38,155 bases of DNA from Candidatus Bathyarchaeia archaeon. GTDB lineage: Archaea > Thermoproteota > CALKCG01 > B24 > JAWCPE01. The translations under genes were made by a program, and so were the position numbers. Shown here in pieces: positions 2,423 to 9,132 of the stretch. The stretch spans positions 1 through 38,155 of the forward strand of contig JAWCPE010000002.1 in the NCBI GenBank assembly GCA_038870415.1. Direction: 5' to 3'. Each line of letters starts with the position of its first letter. Positions within the stretch are counted from its first letter, which is position 1. The notes below the pieces were generated by a model. The model searched no databases. It was not told the origin of the DNA and saw only the letters and a list, made by a program, of their open reading frames with translations.

Positions 2423-3751
2423 CTAGGTTACTGAGCATTCTGTGTGGGGTATCCGTTTCTTCTCGGCTTCTAGGGGGCAGGCTGCTCCGCAGATCTTACG
2501 CCATTCACATTCACAGCATCTCTCTTCGAGTTCCAGCCATCCGCGTCTACGGATGTAGACGCAGAGCTCGTGGCTCCAGATCTTCTCCCAGGGGTCGGTG
2601 AGGATGTTGCCGACGCTCTTGAACCATGACTGGCAGGGCAGCACGGTGCCGTCGGGCTCAACCGCCATGTTCGTCCTGCACGCGGAGCAGAACTTGGCGC
2701 CTAGTCCCATCGTGACGGGGTTCAGCTCGCAGTAACGTGTGGGAGAGTACCAGTTGAACTCCATCCCCAGGAGGAAGGCTTCATGCTTCACTTCGTCTAG
2801 GGTCTTCCGAAGCCTATCCCTAGGGAGGAGAAAGTCCTTCTCCGCGACCTCGCCGCGGCCGCTATAGATGAGGCTGTTCATCGCGAAGTTCACGACGCCC
2901 AGCTTCTTCAGGAAACGGACCAGCTCCAGGGCGTGGTCCACGTTGTAAGGGCTGATAGTCGTGTTTGTCACCACGTAGAGGCCGAGGTTGAGACAGTTCC
3001 TTACCCCGTCAACAGTCTCCTTCCAGCTCCCCGGGGCTCTCGTCATCTTCTCGTGGACTTCAGGTCGATTCGACTCCAGGGTTATCTGGGCAAAGTCGAG
3101 GCCTGCCCGGTAGAGTTTCTCAGCGTACGCTTTATCGCTCAGCCTCCGCCCATTCGTGATAAGGCCGCTTACGAGGCCTATGCTCTGCGTCGCCGCGACG
3201 AGTTCGACGAGGTCATCGCGGAGCGTCGGCTCTCCCCCGGTGAAGCTCACCGCCGGGATCTGGGCCTCAAACAGTTTCTTCAGCACGAGCCGCCACTGCT
3301 CCGTTGTAAGCTCCTGGGTCTCATGAGGCCCCTTCGCGTAGCAGTGGAGGCAGTTGTTCTGGCATCGGTACGTTAAGGCGAGGTCCATCCTGAGGGGCGC
3401 CCGCAGCTCCTCCTCGAAGGGGGCTGTCTTCTCAACCCCCAGGTACATGAAGGGGTCGACTTCGCGGCTCTTGATGAGAACGTCGATCGCCGTCAAGACC
3501 TGGGCGTGGTATCTCCTGAGCTCCCCCCTCTTAGCCCGGTACCTCTTCGCCAGAGCCTTGACGGTTGCCTCGGGGCTGAAGCCTTCAAGGATGAGCCTGA
3601 CGTGGTCCGTCGCCGTCCTGTTCAGGTACAGGACCTTGTTCGCGTTGATGACGAGGATACCCCTACCGTCAGGTTCCTCGCGGAGGTGTAATTTCGCAAC
3701 CCCAGCTGGATGCCCCTGCTCGTCTCGGACGACGTACTGTGCTGCCTTCAA
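2423..3751 (-). CDS. radical SAM/SPASM domain protein with N-terminal PqqD-like (RRE-type) domain; putative peptide/protein-modifying maturase
   Basis: CX3CX2C CQNNCLHC (nt 3341-3364). SPASM signature CSACRTNMAVEPDGTVLPC (C-x12-G-x4-C) plus CCECEWRKICGAAC (CX2CX5CX3C). The first ~100 aa (GILVINANKVLYLNRTATDHVRLILEGFSPEATVKALAKRY..VLTAIDVLIKS) fit the PqqD/RRE pattern. The TTG start overlaps the stop of the upstream gene (TTGA). Confidence 0.85.
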   Translation of the reverse strand: MKAAQYVVRDEQGHPAGVAKLHLREEPDGRGILVINANKVLYLNRTATDHVRLILEGFSPEATVKALAKRYRAKRGELRRYHAQVLTAIDVLIKSREVDPFMYLGVEKTAPFEEELRAPLRMDLALTYRCQNNCLHCYAKGPHETQELTTEQWRLVLKKLFEAQIPAVSFTGGEPTLRDDLVELVAATQSIGLVSGLITNGRRLSDKAYAEKLYRAGLDFAQITLESNRPEVHEKMTRAPGSWKETVDGVRNCLNLGLYVVTNTTISPYNVDHALELVRFLKKLGVVNFAMNSLIYSGRGEVAEKDFLLPRDRLRKTLDEVKHEAFLLGMEFNWYSPTRYCELNPVTMGLGAKFCSACRTNMAVEPDGTVLPCQSWFKSVGNILTDPWEKIWSHELCVYIRRRGWLELEERCCECEWRKICGAACPLEAEKKRIPHTECSVT

Positions 3752-5640
3752 GCGATGGCCTCCTTTAACGAGCGAAGGGCTCGGGTCATCAGCTCATGCT
3801 CCTCAGGCGTTAACCCTTCCGTTTCAACGGAGTAACTCGTCGAGTTAGCCTGGCTCCAGAGGTTGATGGAGCCTCCTCTCTGCGAGGTAAGCTTGAACCC
3901 GTAACGCGGCGGCGCCGCTAGCGGGAAGATGAGGCTCTTCGGGTAGAAGTCCAGCGTGAAGCCTAGCTCTTCCGAGAGCTTTATCGCGGCAGCCTTCATG
4001 CCGCTCTTAAGCCTGAAGCAGAAGCCGCCTCCAGAAGCGCAGGCGCACGCGCAGCTTACACATGCGCAGACGCAGGCGCAGCTGACGCAGGCGCAGACGC
4101 AGTGGCAGCTTGCCCCGTCCTTGTTCCCGCTCGTCGTGTGCGACTGCGTCGAACTCTCAGCCCTCGTCGTGATGGCCTGCATCGCCTTCTCAACATCCTT
4201 CACGGCGTTGCTCGTCATCGTCTCCACGGAGGTGACGAAGCTATCGGCCAGCTTCTCGATGTCCGTGATGACTGGGACCTGCGATGAGGGCGGCCTCTGC
4301 TGAGGGGGCGTCGGCATGGGCGTGGGGCCGGGAACAGGCGTAGGACCTGGGGTGGGGATGCCGACCCTAGGCCTCTCCTGCAGGATTATGATCGGTGGAA
4401 GCCAACGGTAGTAGTAGAAGTCGTAGTCCTCACGCGGCAGCTGTATGGGTCCCTTCACGGTCTCCTTGGTTTTCTCCTTGAACTTGGGGTCTATCATCAA
4501 CCATAGCAGGTTCTCATTGTACTTGTCGAACTGAGCCTGAGGGATGCCGGCTGCCTGAACTTCCCTCCATCTCTCCTCAACCTTGGCCAAGTAGAAGTGG
4601 CGGGTCTCAAGTCGGCTGTAGTAGGCCATCTTATCGTCTACGTTCCGACGTAGTGCTCCGAGGACCGTCCTCAACCCCTCCTCGTCTAAGAAGCCGTCTG
4701 AGGCTACGGCTCGAACCATGTACCTCTCGTAGTATCGCAAGGTGGGGGGCCTGTCGAGAAGCTCCACCCTTATCCTAGGCGTAGCTTCGACAACCCTCAA
4801 CGCTTTCTTTCTAGCCATCGAGTAGAGGATCATCGCCACGATCCTGCCCGGGTGTAGAGGGATCAGTATTGAGGCCTCGACCGGGTCTAGGTCGTCGCGT
4901 ACCGAGGCGTTCCGTCCAAACTTGGCTTGATGAGCGGGCGTCGTGACAACCTCCATCGATAATCTCGGCGGCACGTAGGGCTCCCGTCTCCTACGGAGCA
5001 TGACCGCGCTGACAGCTATCACAGCGACCCCGGCCGAAACGAGCCCGAGCGGGATGAGGATAGCCGCCAGGCTCCCAAGGCTCAGCCCCTGCCCCTCGTA
5101 TCGGTCAACGTATCTCTCGGGGAAGGAGACGCCGACTGTGAACTTCTCGTTAGCAGGCCACGAGGGGCGTTCCCAGTAGACTCCCAGCCTATCGTCGACG
5201 GTGAACACGTTGTTCCATAGGATGGTTCCCGTCTTCACCTCGCTCTGTTGGACACCTGGAGGCAGAAGGATGAGGACCCTCAGGTTCATCCTGTCGCTGA
5301 AATCCCACCATGCGGGGATGAACTGGACACCCACGTTGCCGGGGTTCGTCTCATCCTTGAAGATGAACCTGTCAATCGTCGCGGAGGCCCAGACCCCCAC
5401 CGACTGCCCCGCGTAAACATCCTGATGGAAGAAGATCTTCAGCCGTTTGTTATCTTTCTCGACCTCCACCGTGAGCCTGTTACCAGCAGAATCGACGGCG
5501 GAGGCATCCGATATATGCTCGTTAGGCATGCCCAGGTAGATGCCCTGTTGGGGGTCACCTGTGACCACGACGGACACATTGTAGGAAAGCCGCGATGTCC
5601 CATCCTTGTTCAGTTGCAGCGTAGCCCATTCCCTCTCCAT
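3748..5640 (-). CDS. DUF2207-like membrane protein with Pro-rich linker and alternating-Cys repeat (likely extends 5' to ~5781)
   Basis: 630 aa. The N-terminal ~190-aa domain is followed by a TM segment LSLGSLAAILIPLGLVSAGVAVIAVSAVML and then RRRR. The post-TM segment PYVPPRL..LDPVEASILIPLHPGRIVAMILYSMARKKALRVVE resembles DUF2207. Further on are the linker PTPGPTPVPGPTPMPTPPQQRPP and the Cys run SCHCVCACVSCACVCACVSCACACASGGGFCF (aa ~512-541). The family name is from memory, not a search. Confidence 0.8.
   Translation of the reverse strand: MEREWATLQLNKDGTSRLSYNVSVVVTGDPQQGIYLGMPNEHISDASAVDSAGNRLTVEVEKDNKRLKIFFHQDVYAGQSVGVWASATIDRFIFKDETNPGNVGVQFIPAWWDFSDRMNLRVLILLPPGVQQSEVKTGTILWNNVFTVDDRLGVYWERPSWPANEKFTVGVSFPERYVDRYEGQGLSLGSLAAILIPLGLVSAGVAVIAVSAVMLRRRREPYVPPRLSMEVVTTPAHQAKFGRNASVRDDLDPVEASILIPLHPGRIVAMILYSMARKKALRVVEATPRIRVELLDRPPTLRYYERYMVRAVASDGFLDEEGLRTVLGALRRNVDDKMAYYSRLETRHFYLAKVEERWREVQAAGIPQAQFDKYNENLLWLMIDPKFKEKTKETVKGPIQLPREDYDFYYYRWLPPIIILQERPRVGIPTPGPTPVPGPTPMPTPPQQRPPSSQVPVITDIEKLADSFVTSVETMTSNAVKDVEKAMQAITTRAESSTQSHTTSGNKDGASCHCVCACVSCACVCACVSCACACASGGGFCFRLKSGMKAAAIKLSEELGFTLDFYPKSLIFPLAAPPRYGFKLTSQRGGSINLWSQANSTSYSVETEGLTPEEHELMTRALRSLKEAIA
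4015..4110 (-). repeat. in-frame tandem repeat encoding the alternating-Cys tract
   Basis: Minus strand: gtc tgc gcc tgc gtc agc tgc gcc tgc, then gtc tgc gca tgt gta agc tgc gcg tgc. Both 27-nt units encode VCACVSCAC. They are flanked by tgc cac tgc and by gcc tgc gct tct gga ggc ggc ttc tgc. Confidence 0.9.
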
Positions 5641-5842
5641 GTAGAAGGCGCTAGCCGGTGAAGCCCCACTCGGCGCCGGGATGAGGAAGAACGCTGGAAG
5701 AGTGAAACTGACTATCGCAAGAGTGATTACGACGCGTAAGCGTCGAAGACCCGAAGCGGAGCTGCGCTTTCCCTCCTTCAGCTCAGATGCCGCCCTCCGC
5801 CTGCTTAGTCAGACCCTTTCCCGAATTGTAGCCGAGCGTCTG

Positions 5843-7415: not shown

Positions 7416-7751
7416 TTAAGCGAGCTTTCGAACCGCTCTTTCCAGCATTTCTATGCCTTTCGCAAGCGTCTCCTTTCCTCGTTCCGTAGCCTCGTAGTAC
7501 TTCCTGTCAGCCCTTCCAGGGGTGGGCGGCCTCAAGGTTTTCCTGATGAGGCCTTCAGCCGCCATCCTGTAGAGGACGAAGTAGACCGTGATCGTCGCAA
7601 CTGAGAAGCCGAAACGCTCCTTCAACGTCTTCCTTATCTCATAGGCGTACATGGGCCTGTCGATGACCATCCGTAGCACGTAGAGCCACAGGTTCTCCAC
7701 GGTGACCTTCTTTGCAAGCCTCTTAAGGGCCAACCCCCAACCTCCGGGCAT
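7416..7751 (-). CDS. PadR family transcriptional regulator
   Basis: 111 aa with a winged-helix pattern MYAYEIRKTLKERFGFSVATITVYFVLYRMAAEGLI..KYYEATERG, typical of PadR. Confidence 0.8.
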   Translation of the reverse strand: MPGGWGLALKRLAKKVTVENLWLYVLRMVIDRPMYAYEIRKTLKERFGFSVATITVYFVLYRMAAEGLIRKTLRPPTPGRADRKYYEATERGKETLAKGIEMLERAVRKLA

Positions 7752-7763
7752 TGGCCTACGAGT

Positions 7764-8054
7764 CTATCTCGTCGAGGTGGCGGTGGGTTTCCTCTCCGAC
7801 CGGGACCTGACCTTGACGACTCGATGATGGATCGCGCAGGAGATGCAGTAGTTCCGGACGACCTGCTGCCCTCCGAGATACGCGCCTTTGGCACGAAGCT
7901 CTCTCGCCAACTGGGGGTCCACGAAGGAGACGCGGCTGGTGATCCTCTTAACCTTGTCTCTCGGCACTAGGCTTCCACAGGCGCTGCACTGGACGAGTTC
8001 GCTTCTACCCTTGCCACCCTTGCCCCTACCCCTCGACCGTCTCTTCTTCGGCAT
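7764..8054 (-). CDS. rps26e: 30S ribosomal protein S26e
   Basis: 96 aa: MPKKRRSRGRGKGGKGR..VQCSACG..PRDK...NYCISCAIH. These are the characteristic S26e zinc-ribbon cysteines and basic N-terminus. Confidence 0.85.
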   Translation of the reverse strand: MPKKRRSRGRGKGGKGRSELVQCSACGSLVPRDKVKRITSRVSFVDPQLARELRAKGAYLGGQQVVRNYCISCAIHHRVVKVRSRSERKPTATSTR

Positions 8055-8220: not shown

Positions 8221-9132
8221 TTGGGAAGGTTGGTCACCCTCCTCGTCGTCGGGCACTGTACGATAGACCACATCTACGTGGGGGGCTCGCCATGGAGACC
8301 GACGCTCGGAGGCCCCGCGACCTACACCTCCCTAGCGGCAAGGAGCCTCGGGGCGGATGTGAAGCTGATCTCGCTCGTCGGCGCCGATTTCCCAGATGAA
8401 TACGCGATCTGGCTGTCAAGCAAGGGCGTAGACATCTCAGGATTAAGGAGGCTAGACGGCGAGAGGACGACGAGCTTCATTCATCGGTACAGCGGCCACG
8501 AGAGGTCGATGTGGCTGAGAGCCAGATGCCGCCCGCTCTCGACCCAAGACATCCCTGAGAGCCTTGATGCCGACGCGGTCCACCTAGGCCCGGTAGCCAA
8601 CGATATCACCCCTGAGGCTTTCATGAAAGCGACGAGGAGTTCGACGCTCATCTCCTTAGACCCCCAGGGCTACCTGAGAGCCTTCGGTTCCGACGGCATA
8701 GTGTCGCAGTCTACGCCGCCCGATTTCATCCTTGACGGCGTCGATATCCTCAAAGCCTCAGGCGGGGAGCTTGTCTGGATGACGGGCATAGGGGACCTCC
8801 TAGCGGCCTGTCGCGAGGTGGTCCGCAGAGGGCCTATGATCGTGATCGCCACAAGGGGCGCGGAAGGCGTCGTTCTCGTCAGCCAGAAGGAGGCCTTCAT
8901 CGTACCGGCTTATACGCCTAGGAAGGTGGTTGACCCGACCGGTGCCGGTGACGCGTTCATAGGCGCGTTCCTAGCCGAGTACCTTACGAAACAAGACCTA
9001 GCCTGGTCAGCTGCGGTAGGGTCTGCCTCCGCCAGCTTCGTGGTTGAAGGCTACGGGCCTTCATCCTTCGGTGAACGAGACGAGGTCTACGCGAGAGCGC
9101 AGACCGTGACCCGCGGCGTGAAGAGGCTGTGA
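8221..9132 (+). CDS. PfkB-family carbohydrate/nucleoside kinase
   Basis: 303 aa with TTG start. It has the C-terminal signature DPTGAGDAFIGAF and an N-terminal GG-type motif (LGGPATY). Confidence 0.8.
   Translation: MGRLVTLLVVGHCTIDHIYVGGSPWRPTLGGPATYTSLAARSLGADVKLISLVGADFPDEYAIWLSSKGVDISGLRRLDGERTTSFIHRYSGHERSMWLRARCRPLSTQDIPESLDADAVHLGPVANDITPEAFMKATRSSTLISLDPQGYLRAFGSDGIVSQSTPPDFILDGVDILKASGGELVWMTGIGDLLAACREVVRRGPMIVIATRGAEGVVLVSQKEAFIVPAYTPRKVVDPTGAGDAFIGAFLAEYLTKQDLAWSAAVGSASASFVVEGYGPSSFGERDEVYARAQTVTRGVKRL

Follow-up and report, generated by a model that had tools for sequence, protein, structure and literature searches.

A radical SAM-SPASM enzyme coupled to a membrane protein with a Cys-Ala tract: a candidate system for maturation in place

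A contig of a Candidatus Bathyarchaeia archaeon (GenBank assembly GCA_038870415.1, contig JAWCPE010000002.1, positions 1 to 38,155; "the window" below means this whole stretch of 38,155 nucleotides) encodes a coupled gene pair, consisting of a single-pass membrane protein that carries an alternating Cys-Ala tract and, directly downstream, a radical S-adenosylmethionine (rSAM) enzyme with a SPASM domain. The enzyme begins with a recognition element (RRE) of the type found in the biosynthesis of peptides that the ribosome makes and that are modified after translation (RiPPs). Based on sequence-level evidence, we put the probability that the enzyme modifies the tract at roughly 0.55. The gene pair would then be a RiPP-like maturation system that acts on the C-terminal region of an entire membrane protein instead of on a free peptide. 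The evidence comprises near-obligate linkage of the two genes across archaea and bacteria, selection on the tract at the peptide level, and the domain architecture of both proteins.

Linkage of the enzyme and the tract protein across genomes

To assess linkage from the enzyme side, an alignment of the rSAM enzyme was used to scan one genome per GTDB species, yielding 80 loci (42%–52% identity over the full length) from Bathyarchaeia, Heimdallarchaeota, Thermoplasmatota, Methanomassiliicoccales, Anaerolineae, Acidobacteriota, and Aminicenantes (at least six phyla). A tract-bearing gene encoding ~520–700 aa was located directly upstream and on the same strand at 75 of these 80 rSAM loci. At one other locus the tract gene is divergent to the rSAM gene (L031), and another is at a contig edge (L013). 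In the reverse test, metagenome contigs were retrieved with an alignment of the membrane protein, and the rSAM gene was downstream of the tract gene at all seven loci that could be evaluated. The linkage holds in archaea and bacteria while other neighbors vary; each locus has one tract gene, and the distribution tracks major lineages. The initial annotation, made from the sequence alone, had raised the question of whether a Cys-repeat partner recurs beside homologs of the enzyme. It does recur, and the homologs were not found to be generally unlinked from such genes.

The two genes of the window overlap as follows:

3748..3751, minus strand: TTGA start/stop overlap, comprising the rSAM TTG start and the membrane-protein TGA stop (sequence)

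The overlap and the two-gene unit, both recognized in the initial annotation, were confirmed, with spacers of 327 nt downstream and 280 nt upstream of the pair. A Shine-Dalgarno sequence (AAGGAGG) is present 7 nt upstream of the rSAM TTG, inside the membrane-protein gene. Homologs of the enzyme use the same start residue, coded by ATG, GTG, or TTG, and the 4-nt overlap is kept in the closest relatives (L081 and L082).

The enzyme has a recognition element and matches no family of known substrate

The enzyme gene contains the following features:

2423..3751, minus strand: RRE-radical SAM-SPASM gene, 442 aa, TTG start (open reading frame [ORF], Pfam, AlphaFold, Foldseek)
3467..3751, minus strand: PqqD-like RRE, aa 1–95 (PF05402 matches in the family, profile, AlphaFold)
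3341..3364, minus strand: CX3CX2C cluster motif CQNNCLHC, aa 130–137 (sequence; invariant in the homolog alignment)
2435..2689, minus strand: SPASM domain with Cys C355, C373, C412, C415, C421, C425, and C439 (Pfam, alignment)

The enzyme belongs to both Radical_SAM (PF04055; 5.2e-26, 92 bits against a Pfam cut-off of 29.5 bits) and SPASM (PF13186; 1.4e-07, 32.1 bits against 21.5 bits). Its SPASM signature comprises CSACRTNMAVEPDGTVLPC (aa 355–373), CCECEWRKICGAAC (aa 412–425), and a final Cys at 439, with an additional Cys (C341) upstream of the span at 2435..2689. In the homolog alignment, the three rSAM Cys are invariant, as are C355, G368, C373, C412, C415, C421, and C425, and C439 is present. 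The N-terminal ~95 aa are a PqqD-like RRE by fold as well as by sequence similarity. Although the window domain scored 18.2 bits, below the PF05402 (PqqD) cut-off of 23.4 bits, 24 of 26 diverse family members matched PF05402 (best 1.5e-7), and a profile of the domain matched the lasso-peptide RREs TfuB1 (1.1e-6) and TbiB1 (7e-3). In the AlphaFold model the domain forms four beta strands (strand stretches 15–25, 31–35, and 39–43), followed by three helices at 45–55, 60–71, and 75–94. The cluster motif, seven-Cys signature, and RRE-like extension that the initial annotation had read from the sequence are hence all present. To our knowledge, RRE-bearing SPASM enzymes of known function act on a peptide bound by the RRE. 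A 334-aa protein that is 100% identical to the enzyme (P0052), considered as a possible RRE-less alternative start, turned out to be a contig-truncated fragment.

Structural comparison placed the enzyme among peptide-modifying rSAM proteins. The AlphaFold model (predicted local distance difference test score [pLDDT] of 80.6) shows the rSAM barrel, and a Foldseek search with the whole model gave SkfB (1e-17), SuiB (including its peptide-bound form), and CteB as the best matches, over the full length; anSME was also among the structural matches. When compared against solved structures, the family profile matched SkfB (5.8e-30) and PqqE first, along with SuiB and CteB, from residue ~115 on only. 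Weak similarity to the lipid-modifying Tes/GDGT-MAS enzymes was also seen (NCBIfam and profile search).

No NCBIfam equivalog cut-off was reached by the enzyme. The best score was for NirJ2 (137 bits, cut-off 500), followed by AhbC (121, cut-off 650), PqqE (117, cut-off 381), and MoaA (107, cut-off 325); scores were lower for SkfB (78, cut-off 300), StsB (73, cut-off 625), HxsC (70, cut-off 268), and TIGR04340 of the ACGX system (62, cut-off 400). Bacterial and Heimdallarchaeota homologs likewise remained under every equivalog cut-off (e.g., 81 bits for AlbA, cut-off 850, and 72 bits for PapB, cut-off 340, in a Heimdallarchaeota homolog). The enzyme thus falls in no family with a known substrate, which had been named at the outset as a point to check. 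Several identities were discarded on these grounds: a tetrapyrrole or cofactor SPASM enzyme (NirJ, NirJ2, AhbC, AhbD, PqqE, or MoaA), given scores under the cut-offs and the presence of an RRE; a sactipeptide or ranthipeptide equivalog (SkfB, AlbA, StsB, PapB, or the SCIFF maturase), given scores under the cut-offs; and the ACGX-repeat system, given its low TIGR04340 score and a partner repeat that is Cys-Ala inside a 630-aa protein. An anti-phage defense system was also considered and rejected, as PADLOC returned generic viperin-core similarity for the rSAM enzyme and nothing for the membrane protein.

The membrane protein exposes its C-terminal half to the cytoplasm

The membrane-protein gene and its parts are as follows:

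3748..5640, minus strand: single-pass membrane protein from ATG, 630 aa (ORF; homologs P0002–P0049)
5641..5808, minus strand: in-frame open extension with a signal-peptide/transmembrane (TM)-like segment (homology to the N-termini of relatives)
5116..5640, minus strand: outside beta-sandwich domain, aa 1–175 (AlphaFold pLDDT ~90; Foldseek)
4984..5085, minus strand: TM helix, about aa 186–215, then RRRR, aa 216–219 (topology, AlphaFold, sequence)
4402..4938, minus strand: folded cytoplasmic domain, aa 235–413, weakly DUF2207-like (AlphaFold; sub-threshold Pfam matches in homologs)
4273..4374, minus strand: Pro-rich disordered linker, aa 423–456 (AlphaFold, sequence)
4159..4272, minus strand: conserved leader-like segment, aa 457–494 (conserved in archaeal and bacterial homologs)
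4036..4107, minus strand: alternating Cys tract CHCVCACVSCACVCACVSCACACA, aa 512–535 (sequence, alignments)
4015..4035, minus strand: SGGGFCF after the Cys tract (sequence)
3751..4014, minus strand: clade-specific alpha/beta tail domain, aa 543–630, 88 aa (AlphaFold; P0001–P0004 clade)

The window protein itself had no Pfam or NCBIfam match. Homologs share a layout of signal peptide, ~200-aa outside domain, one TM helix, and basic cluster, and no further TM helix was found in them or in the window protein after the single one; the C-terminal half, including the tract, is therefore cytoplasmic, in the same compartment as the enzyme. In the AlphaFold model (pLDDT 75), the TM helix spans aa 195–216, and Foldseek matched the beta-sandwich to ribophorin I as well as to M1 aminopeptidase N-domains. 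The succession of outside domain, TM helix with RRRR, Pro-rich linker, Cys tract, and ~90-aa tail described in the initial annotation was recovered in full from model and sequence, as was the cytoplasmic placement of the tract. Two of its statements required revision. The length of 630 aa holds for the ORF beginning at ATG 5640, but the frame is open for 168 nt (56 codons) further upstream and encodes ...RRLRVVITLAIVSFTLPAFFLIPAPSGASPASAFY, which is homologous to the signal peptides of relatives. There is no ATG, GTG, or TTG in this extension (5641–5808, minus strand), and a GTC aligns with the ATG of L081. A non-canonical start (CTG 5781 or ATA 5715), a lost start codon, or a sequencing error could account for this. 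In the case of the DUF2207-like segment, overall topology is similar to the DUF2207 layout, and the N-domain (PF09972) was matched below threshold by 3 of 17 homologs (best 1.1e-4); the window protein, however, gave no match even at E ≤1. The C-domain (PF20990) was matched by 1 of the 17 at 0.035, and by a Heimdallarchaeota homolog at 0.066 (13 vs 33 bits).

Some larger homologs (P0171, P0177, P0182, P0191, and P0192; 766–838 aa) have an extra N-terminal region of ~240 aa with a second matched stretch, which may be a duplicated outside domain.

The Cys-Ala tract is conserved at the peptide level

All 12 Cys of the 630-aa protein are located within aa 512–541 (chance estimate ~1e-13). Homologs of the membrane protein were collected by word search (48 clusters) and by an exhaustive hidden Markov model (HMM) search (1,536 representative clusters at E ≤1e-3, of which 372 at E ≤1e-30). 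The tract is present in 47 of the 48 word-search homologs and in 136 of the best 150 HMM representatives, in which its position was scored. Thirteen of the 14 tract-less representatives end inside the protein body and look like C-terminal fragments, and the other ends in a short CACACAGGGR. The tract lies ≤6 residues from the C-terminus in 132 of 136 cases, most commonly ending in CAGGGR (98 cases). Variants differ by lineage: CVCACxxCACACACVSCACACAGGGVG in Bathyarchaeia (10 Cys), CACACACAGCACACAGGGR in bacteria (7 Cys), and CACACACACACAGGGR in Heimdallarchaeota and Thermoplasmatota (6 Cys). In the homolog alignment, Ala positions are as invariant as Cys positions, which would fit Ala being a reaction partner.

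Codon usage in 95 tracts showed a Cys TGC:TGT ratio of 436:351 and Ala in all four codons. For a single peptide, CACACACAGCACACA, the DNA came in 31 distinct versions, which differed by 0.50 at third codon positions and by 0.0 at first and second positions. Synonymous sites are saturated and the peptide is unchanged, indicating selection at the peptide level. A DNA-level repeat or palindrome was hence rejected as the cause of conservation; codons are also mixed in the window tract. The Bathyarchaeia-type tract is hydrophobic by Kyte-Doolittle, and a C-terminal TM segment or tail anchor was therefore considered. This was rejected, as the bacterial and Heimdallarchaeota cores are 12–17 residues long between polar Gly/Ser/Arg and AlphaFold predicts disorder (pLDDT ~30 for the tract).

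A leader-like segment of ~35 aa (consensus PG.dFA.niV..iE..a.niV.n.e.F) is found 15–25 residues upstream of the tract in both archaeal and bacterial members, with low-complexity linkers on both sides. It is modeled as a short strand plus helices (aa 457–490, pLDDT about 71–84). Judged from sequence, the segment, spacer, and tract look like the leader-then-core layout of a RiPP precursor. A ~90-aa domain after the tract occurs only in the clade of the window (P0001–P0004), where it is predicted to fold as alpha-beta4-alpha (aa 548–629, AlphaFold). This tail had no Pfam or PDB match and was not a separate gene at any locus examined.

Proposed maturation of the tract and competing explanations

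We propose that the membrane protein is exported N-terminus-out by means of its signal peptide, placing the beta-sandwich outside, with one TM helix crossing the membrane and the C-terminal half left in the cytoplasm. In that half, the Pro-rich linker would lead to the ~35-aa leader-like segment and, past a short polar spacer, to the (Cys-Ala/Val)n tract at the end. The rSAM enzyme would grip the leader-like segment through its N-terminal RRE and feed the tract into the active site, where 5'-deoxyadenosyl radical chemistry, helped by two SPASM auxiliary clusters, could covalently modify it. The likeliest chemistry would be an intramolecular thioether that joins Cys sulfur to the invariant Ala/Val at either the alpha or the beta carbon, as in sactionines and ranthionines. 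Thioether formation is favored on two grounds, namely that crosslinks are what the nearest relatives make and that a mere spacer role would hardly account for the invariance of Ala; we offer this specific bond only tentatively. In this way, a flexible tail would become a rigid module, held by crosslinks and still attached to the membrane protein. Retention on the protein is suggested because nothing in the cassette releases or exports the product and because members of the window's clade continue past the tract with a folded domain. A crosslinked (Cys-Ala)n thioether/thiolate module might then serve as a membrane-tethered metal-binding or redox cofactor of a DUF2207-like envelope protein, a role that we regard as doubtful. 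If true, however, protein-derived cofactors would gain a new class, one that RiPP-type machinery produces on an entire membrane protein and that is conserved from Asgard archaea through to Chloroflexi.

Several observations weigh against modification of the tract by the enzyme. Three of the 80 rSAM loci (L029, L048, and L077) have no adjacent tract partner. At L093, a methyltransferase gene directly follows tandem tract proteins with no rSAM gene within 3 kb; the gene for a tract protein therefore need not have an rSAM neighbor. Auxiliary cluster I appears to be fully Cys-ligated (C341, C355, C373, and C425), unlike that of CteB, which has an open coordination site. The modeled leader-like segment could pack on the cytoplasmic domain rather than be free, and the internal position of the tract in the window's clade, with a folded domain after it, is unusual for a core peptide. 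Finally, Cys-x-Cys runs are classic metal ligands.

The last point is also the starting point of an explanation in which the tail stays unmodified and binds metal or Fe-S clusters, as a metallothionein or cluster carrier tethered to the membrane would. Docking through the RRE would then only localize the rSAM enzyme or bring it clusters or electrons, and its substrate would be elsewhere (a lipid or small molecule). Predicted disorder of the tract without a ligand is consistent with this, as are the L093 tract proteins and the weak similarity of the enzyme to Tes/GDGT-MAS. However, metallothioneins have variable residues between their Cys, in contrast to the invariant Ala of the tract; Cys counts differ (6, 7, or 10) and are not multiples of four; and the known RRE-SPASM enzymes, including all structural neighbors of this one, act on a bound peptide. 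We therefore consider an unmodified tail improbable. Slightly less so, but still unlikely in our judgment, is that the tract is indeed the substrate but undergoes other chemistry, namely anSME-like formylglycine formation, epimerization or C-methylation of Ala/Val, or formation of thioethers between Cys and a carbon of a membrane lipid. The lipid version would produce a multiply lipid-anchored tail. In the other lineages that encode it, the methyltransferase would act as a later step. The match to anSME, the tract's hydrophobicity and tethering beside the membrane, the Tes/GDGT-MAS similarity, and a methyltransferase gene that is found at 32 loci and follows the tract protein even without an rSAM gene could all be accommodated in this way. 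Nonetheless, anSME has no RRE and needs a C/SxPxR motif that is absent here, the closest relatives (SkfB, CteB, PqqE, and SuiB) make crosslinks, and the cassette has no conserved lipid-related gene.

The remaining explanations are less probable. In one, the leader and core are cut from the anchor and released as a small modified peptide, making this a conventional RiPP with an oversized precursor. Leader, spacer, and core are at the extreme C-terminus in most members, and the flexible linker would be within reach of a protease. However, clustering of ORFs around the 80 rSAM loci (all-against-all) revealed no conserved protease or exporter. A cluster of ABC ATPases at 12 loci, examined as a possible transporter partner, consisted of unrelated transporters (PstB, DrrA-like) grouped by their generic fold. 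Moreover, the large N-terminal part is well conserved, a folded domain follows the tract in the window's clade, and a single copy per locus with a lineage-following distribution is unlike typical antibiotic RiPP clusters, making release quite unlikely. It is also conceivable that the two genes are not functionally coupled at all, such that the tract is low-complexity sequence or a DNA repeat (TGCGCA is palindromic), the enzyme serves cofactor synthesis like NirJ/Ahb/PqqE, and the two genes are neighbors through synteny alone. The top NCBIfam scores are indeed to NirJ2, AhbC, and PqqE, but these are 3- to 5-fold under the cut-offs, the RRE points to a peptide ligand, the tract peptide is invariant at saturated synonymous sites, and adjacency is kept across archaea and bacteria where other neighbors differ. 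We regard this as very improbable, and coincidental adjacency is effectively excluded by the 75/80 linkage and codon data.

Comparison with known systems

The best sequence and structure matches of the enzyme, i.e., SkfB, CteB/SCIFF, AlbA, and PapB, share its arrangement of N-terminal RRE, rSAM core, and SPASM domain. In the corresponding sactipeptide and ranthipeptide systems, a Cys-rich substrate is located behind a leader, and Cys sulfur is joined to an unactivated carbon. Their substrates are free peptides of ~40–60 aa with scattered Cys that are usually cleaved and exported. Here, in contrast, leader and core form the C-terminus of a 520–690-aa membrane protein, the core repeats strictly as (Cys-Ala)n, and neither a protease nor an exporter was found. 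In anSME and QhpD, a SPASM rSAM enzyme similarly acts on a protein that remains functional afterwards, and QhpD installs Cys thioethers on QhpC. However, anSME has no RRE and its oxidation affects one Cys or Ser within a defined motif, QhpC is a soluble subunit of small size, and neither target is a membrane protein that bears a repeat tract; no QhpD model appeared among the structural matches of the enzyme. The ACGX (TIGR04340/04341) and His-Xaa-Ser (HxsC) systems likewise pair an rSAM/SPASM enzyme with a short-period Cys or His repeat, but in small peptide substrates, whereas the repeat unit here is Cys-Ala with a period of two. Dense Cys-x-Cys in a disordered segment recalls metallothioneins, from which the tract differs by its invariant Ala between Cys, its membrane tether, and its genetic coupling to a radical enzyme.

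In layout, the membrane protein family resembles DUF2207 proteins (PF09972/PF20990), which likewise have a signal peptide, an outside beta-rich domain, and a TM helix; in both, a conserved segment follows the basic cluster on the cytoplasmic side, and the C-terminus is Gly-rich and of low complexity. Canonical DUF2207 proteins carry further TM helices toward the C-terminus, their tails are Gly-rich and not known to contain Cys-Ala repeats, and we know of no link between them and rSAM enzymes. A DUF2207 mutant of Streptococcus mutans showed weakened stress tolerance and biofilm formation (PMC10457818); other functional information on these proteins was not found in the literature searched.

Nearly all known RRE-dependent rSAM/SPASM enzymes make small peptide natural products that are secreted. 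Comparison with the literature and with Pfam and NCBIfam suggests that what is new here is the kind of substrate, a membrane protein with a strict Cys-Ala repeat, while RRE-dependent rSAM/SPASM maturation is known. No Pfam or NCBIfam model covers the membrane protein or names the enzyme, and no description of an rSAM and Cys-Ala membrane-protein cassette was found in the literature searched, in keeping with the initial annotation, which had not recognized the architecture as a described system. The gene pair is not described in the available portions of two relevant surveys (PMC12144867, PMC12710340). If the tract is modified as proposed, RiPP logic would extend to the in-place maturation of membrane proteins. 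The strict Cys-Ala repeat would be a new substrate class, possibly with new crosslinks such as a radical lanthionine-type bond from S to the beta carbon of Ala. Modification of the tract would also provide a first experimental handle on a DUF2207-like family of unknown function that is mostly from uncultured anaerobes, and the system, at two genes in size, is directly testable.

Cassette variants and genomic surroundings

The two-gene form is the minimal version of a larger cassette that elsewhere includes a pseudo-rSAM protein and a methyltransferase. A class-I methyltransferase (Methyltransf_11, no equivalog) is encoded at 32 loci (e.g., L039 7262–8029, L063 8435–9196, and L029 7291–8037). 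It occurs in bacterial, Heimdallarchaeota, and Thermoplasmatota cassettes, but not in Bathyarchaeia or the window, and within this sample accompanies the ...GGGR tract ending. In Anaerolineae, a ~385-aa rSAM paralog follows the rSAM gene (L063 7267–8442; likewise L066, L050, and L038). This paralog keeps the RRE (PqqD, 30 bits) and barrel core but has lost CX3CX2C and all SPASM Cys, making it a pseudo-rSAM that may be a non-catalytic, substrate-presenting subunit. A pseudo-rSAM was looked for in the window and not found. In another arrangement, seen at one bacterial locus of the seven in the reverse test (L092 716–2689), a gene for a PAS/GAF histidine kinase separates the tract gene from the rSAM gene. 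In yet another (L093 1–3086, and L094), two tract membrane proteins stand in tandem; their motif is permuted, CACACAGCACACACAGGGR, with several TM helices adjacent.

In the spacers around the gene pair, no conserved or Cys-rich small precursor ORF was found. A hidden small precursor was accordingly rejected, as the candidate ORFs were neither conserved nor Cys-rich. Scans for terminators and for sigma-70 promoters, the latter with a sigma-70 consensus in an archaeal host, gave matches at background level.

Upstream genes of the window (a xylose-isomerase-like TIM barrel, PadR, ribosomal protein S26e, and a PfkB kinase) are syntenic with the closest relative, L081 (window 7416–8054 and 8221–9132; L081 1505–4806). 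Downstream genes differ, the window having an aminotransferase and a DUF5752-like ORF. This change from shared genes upstream to different ones downstream points to a rearrangement just past the rSAM gene. In L081 (8612–9325), L082 (4183–4890), and L083 (8462–9169), the closest relatives with a tail domain, the gene directly 3' of the rSAM gene is PspA/IM30-like. The Pfam match to PspA/IM30 is in L083, and the L081 protein is 26% identical to that of L083. This neighbor hints at a link to membrane stress. Neither a PspA homolog nor the methyltransferase was found in the window.

Shortly before the rSAM start at many loci (L003, L010, L014, L020, L054, and others), translation of the tract DNA in the +1 frame gives (Cys-Leu/Met)n, for instance MCLCLRLCLCLC, and runs on without a stop into the rSAM frame. 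Naive longest-ORF calls therefore over-extend the rSAM N-terminus at these loci.

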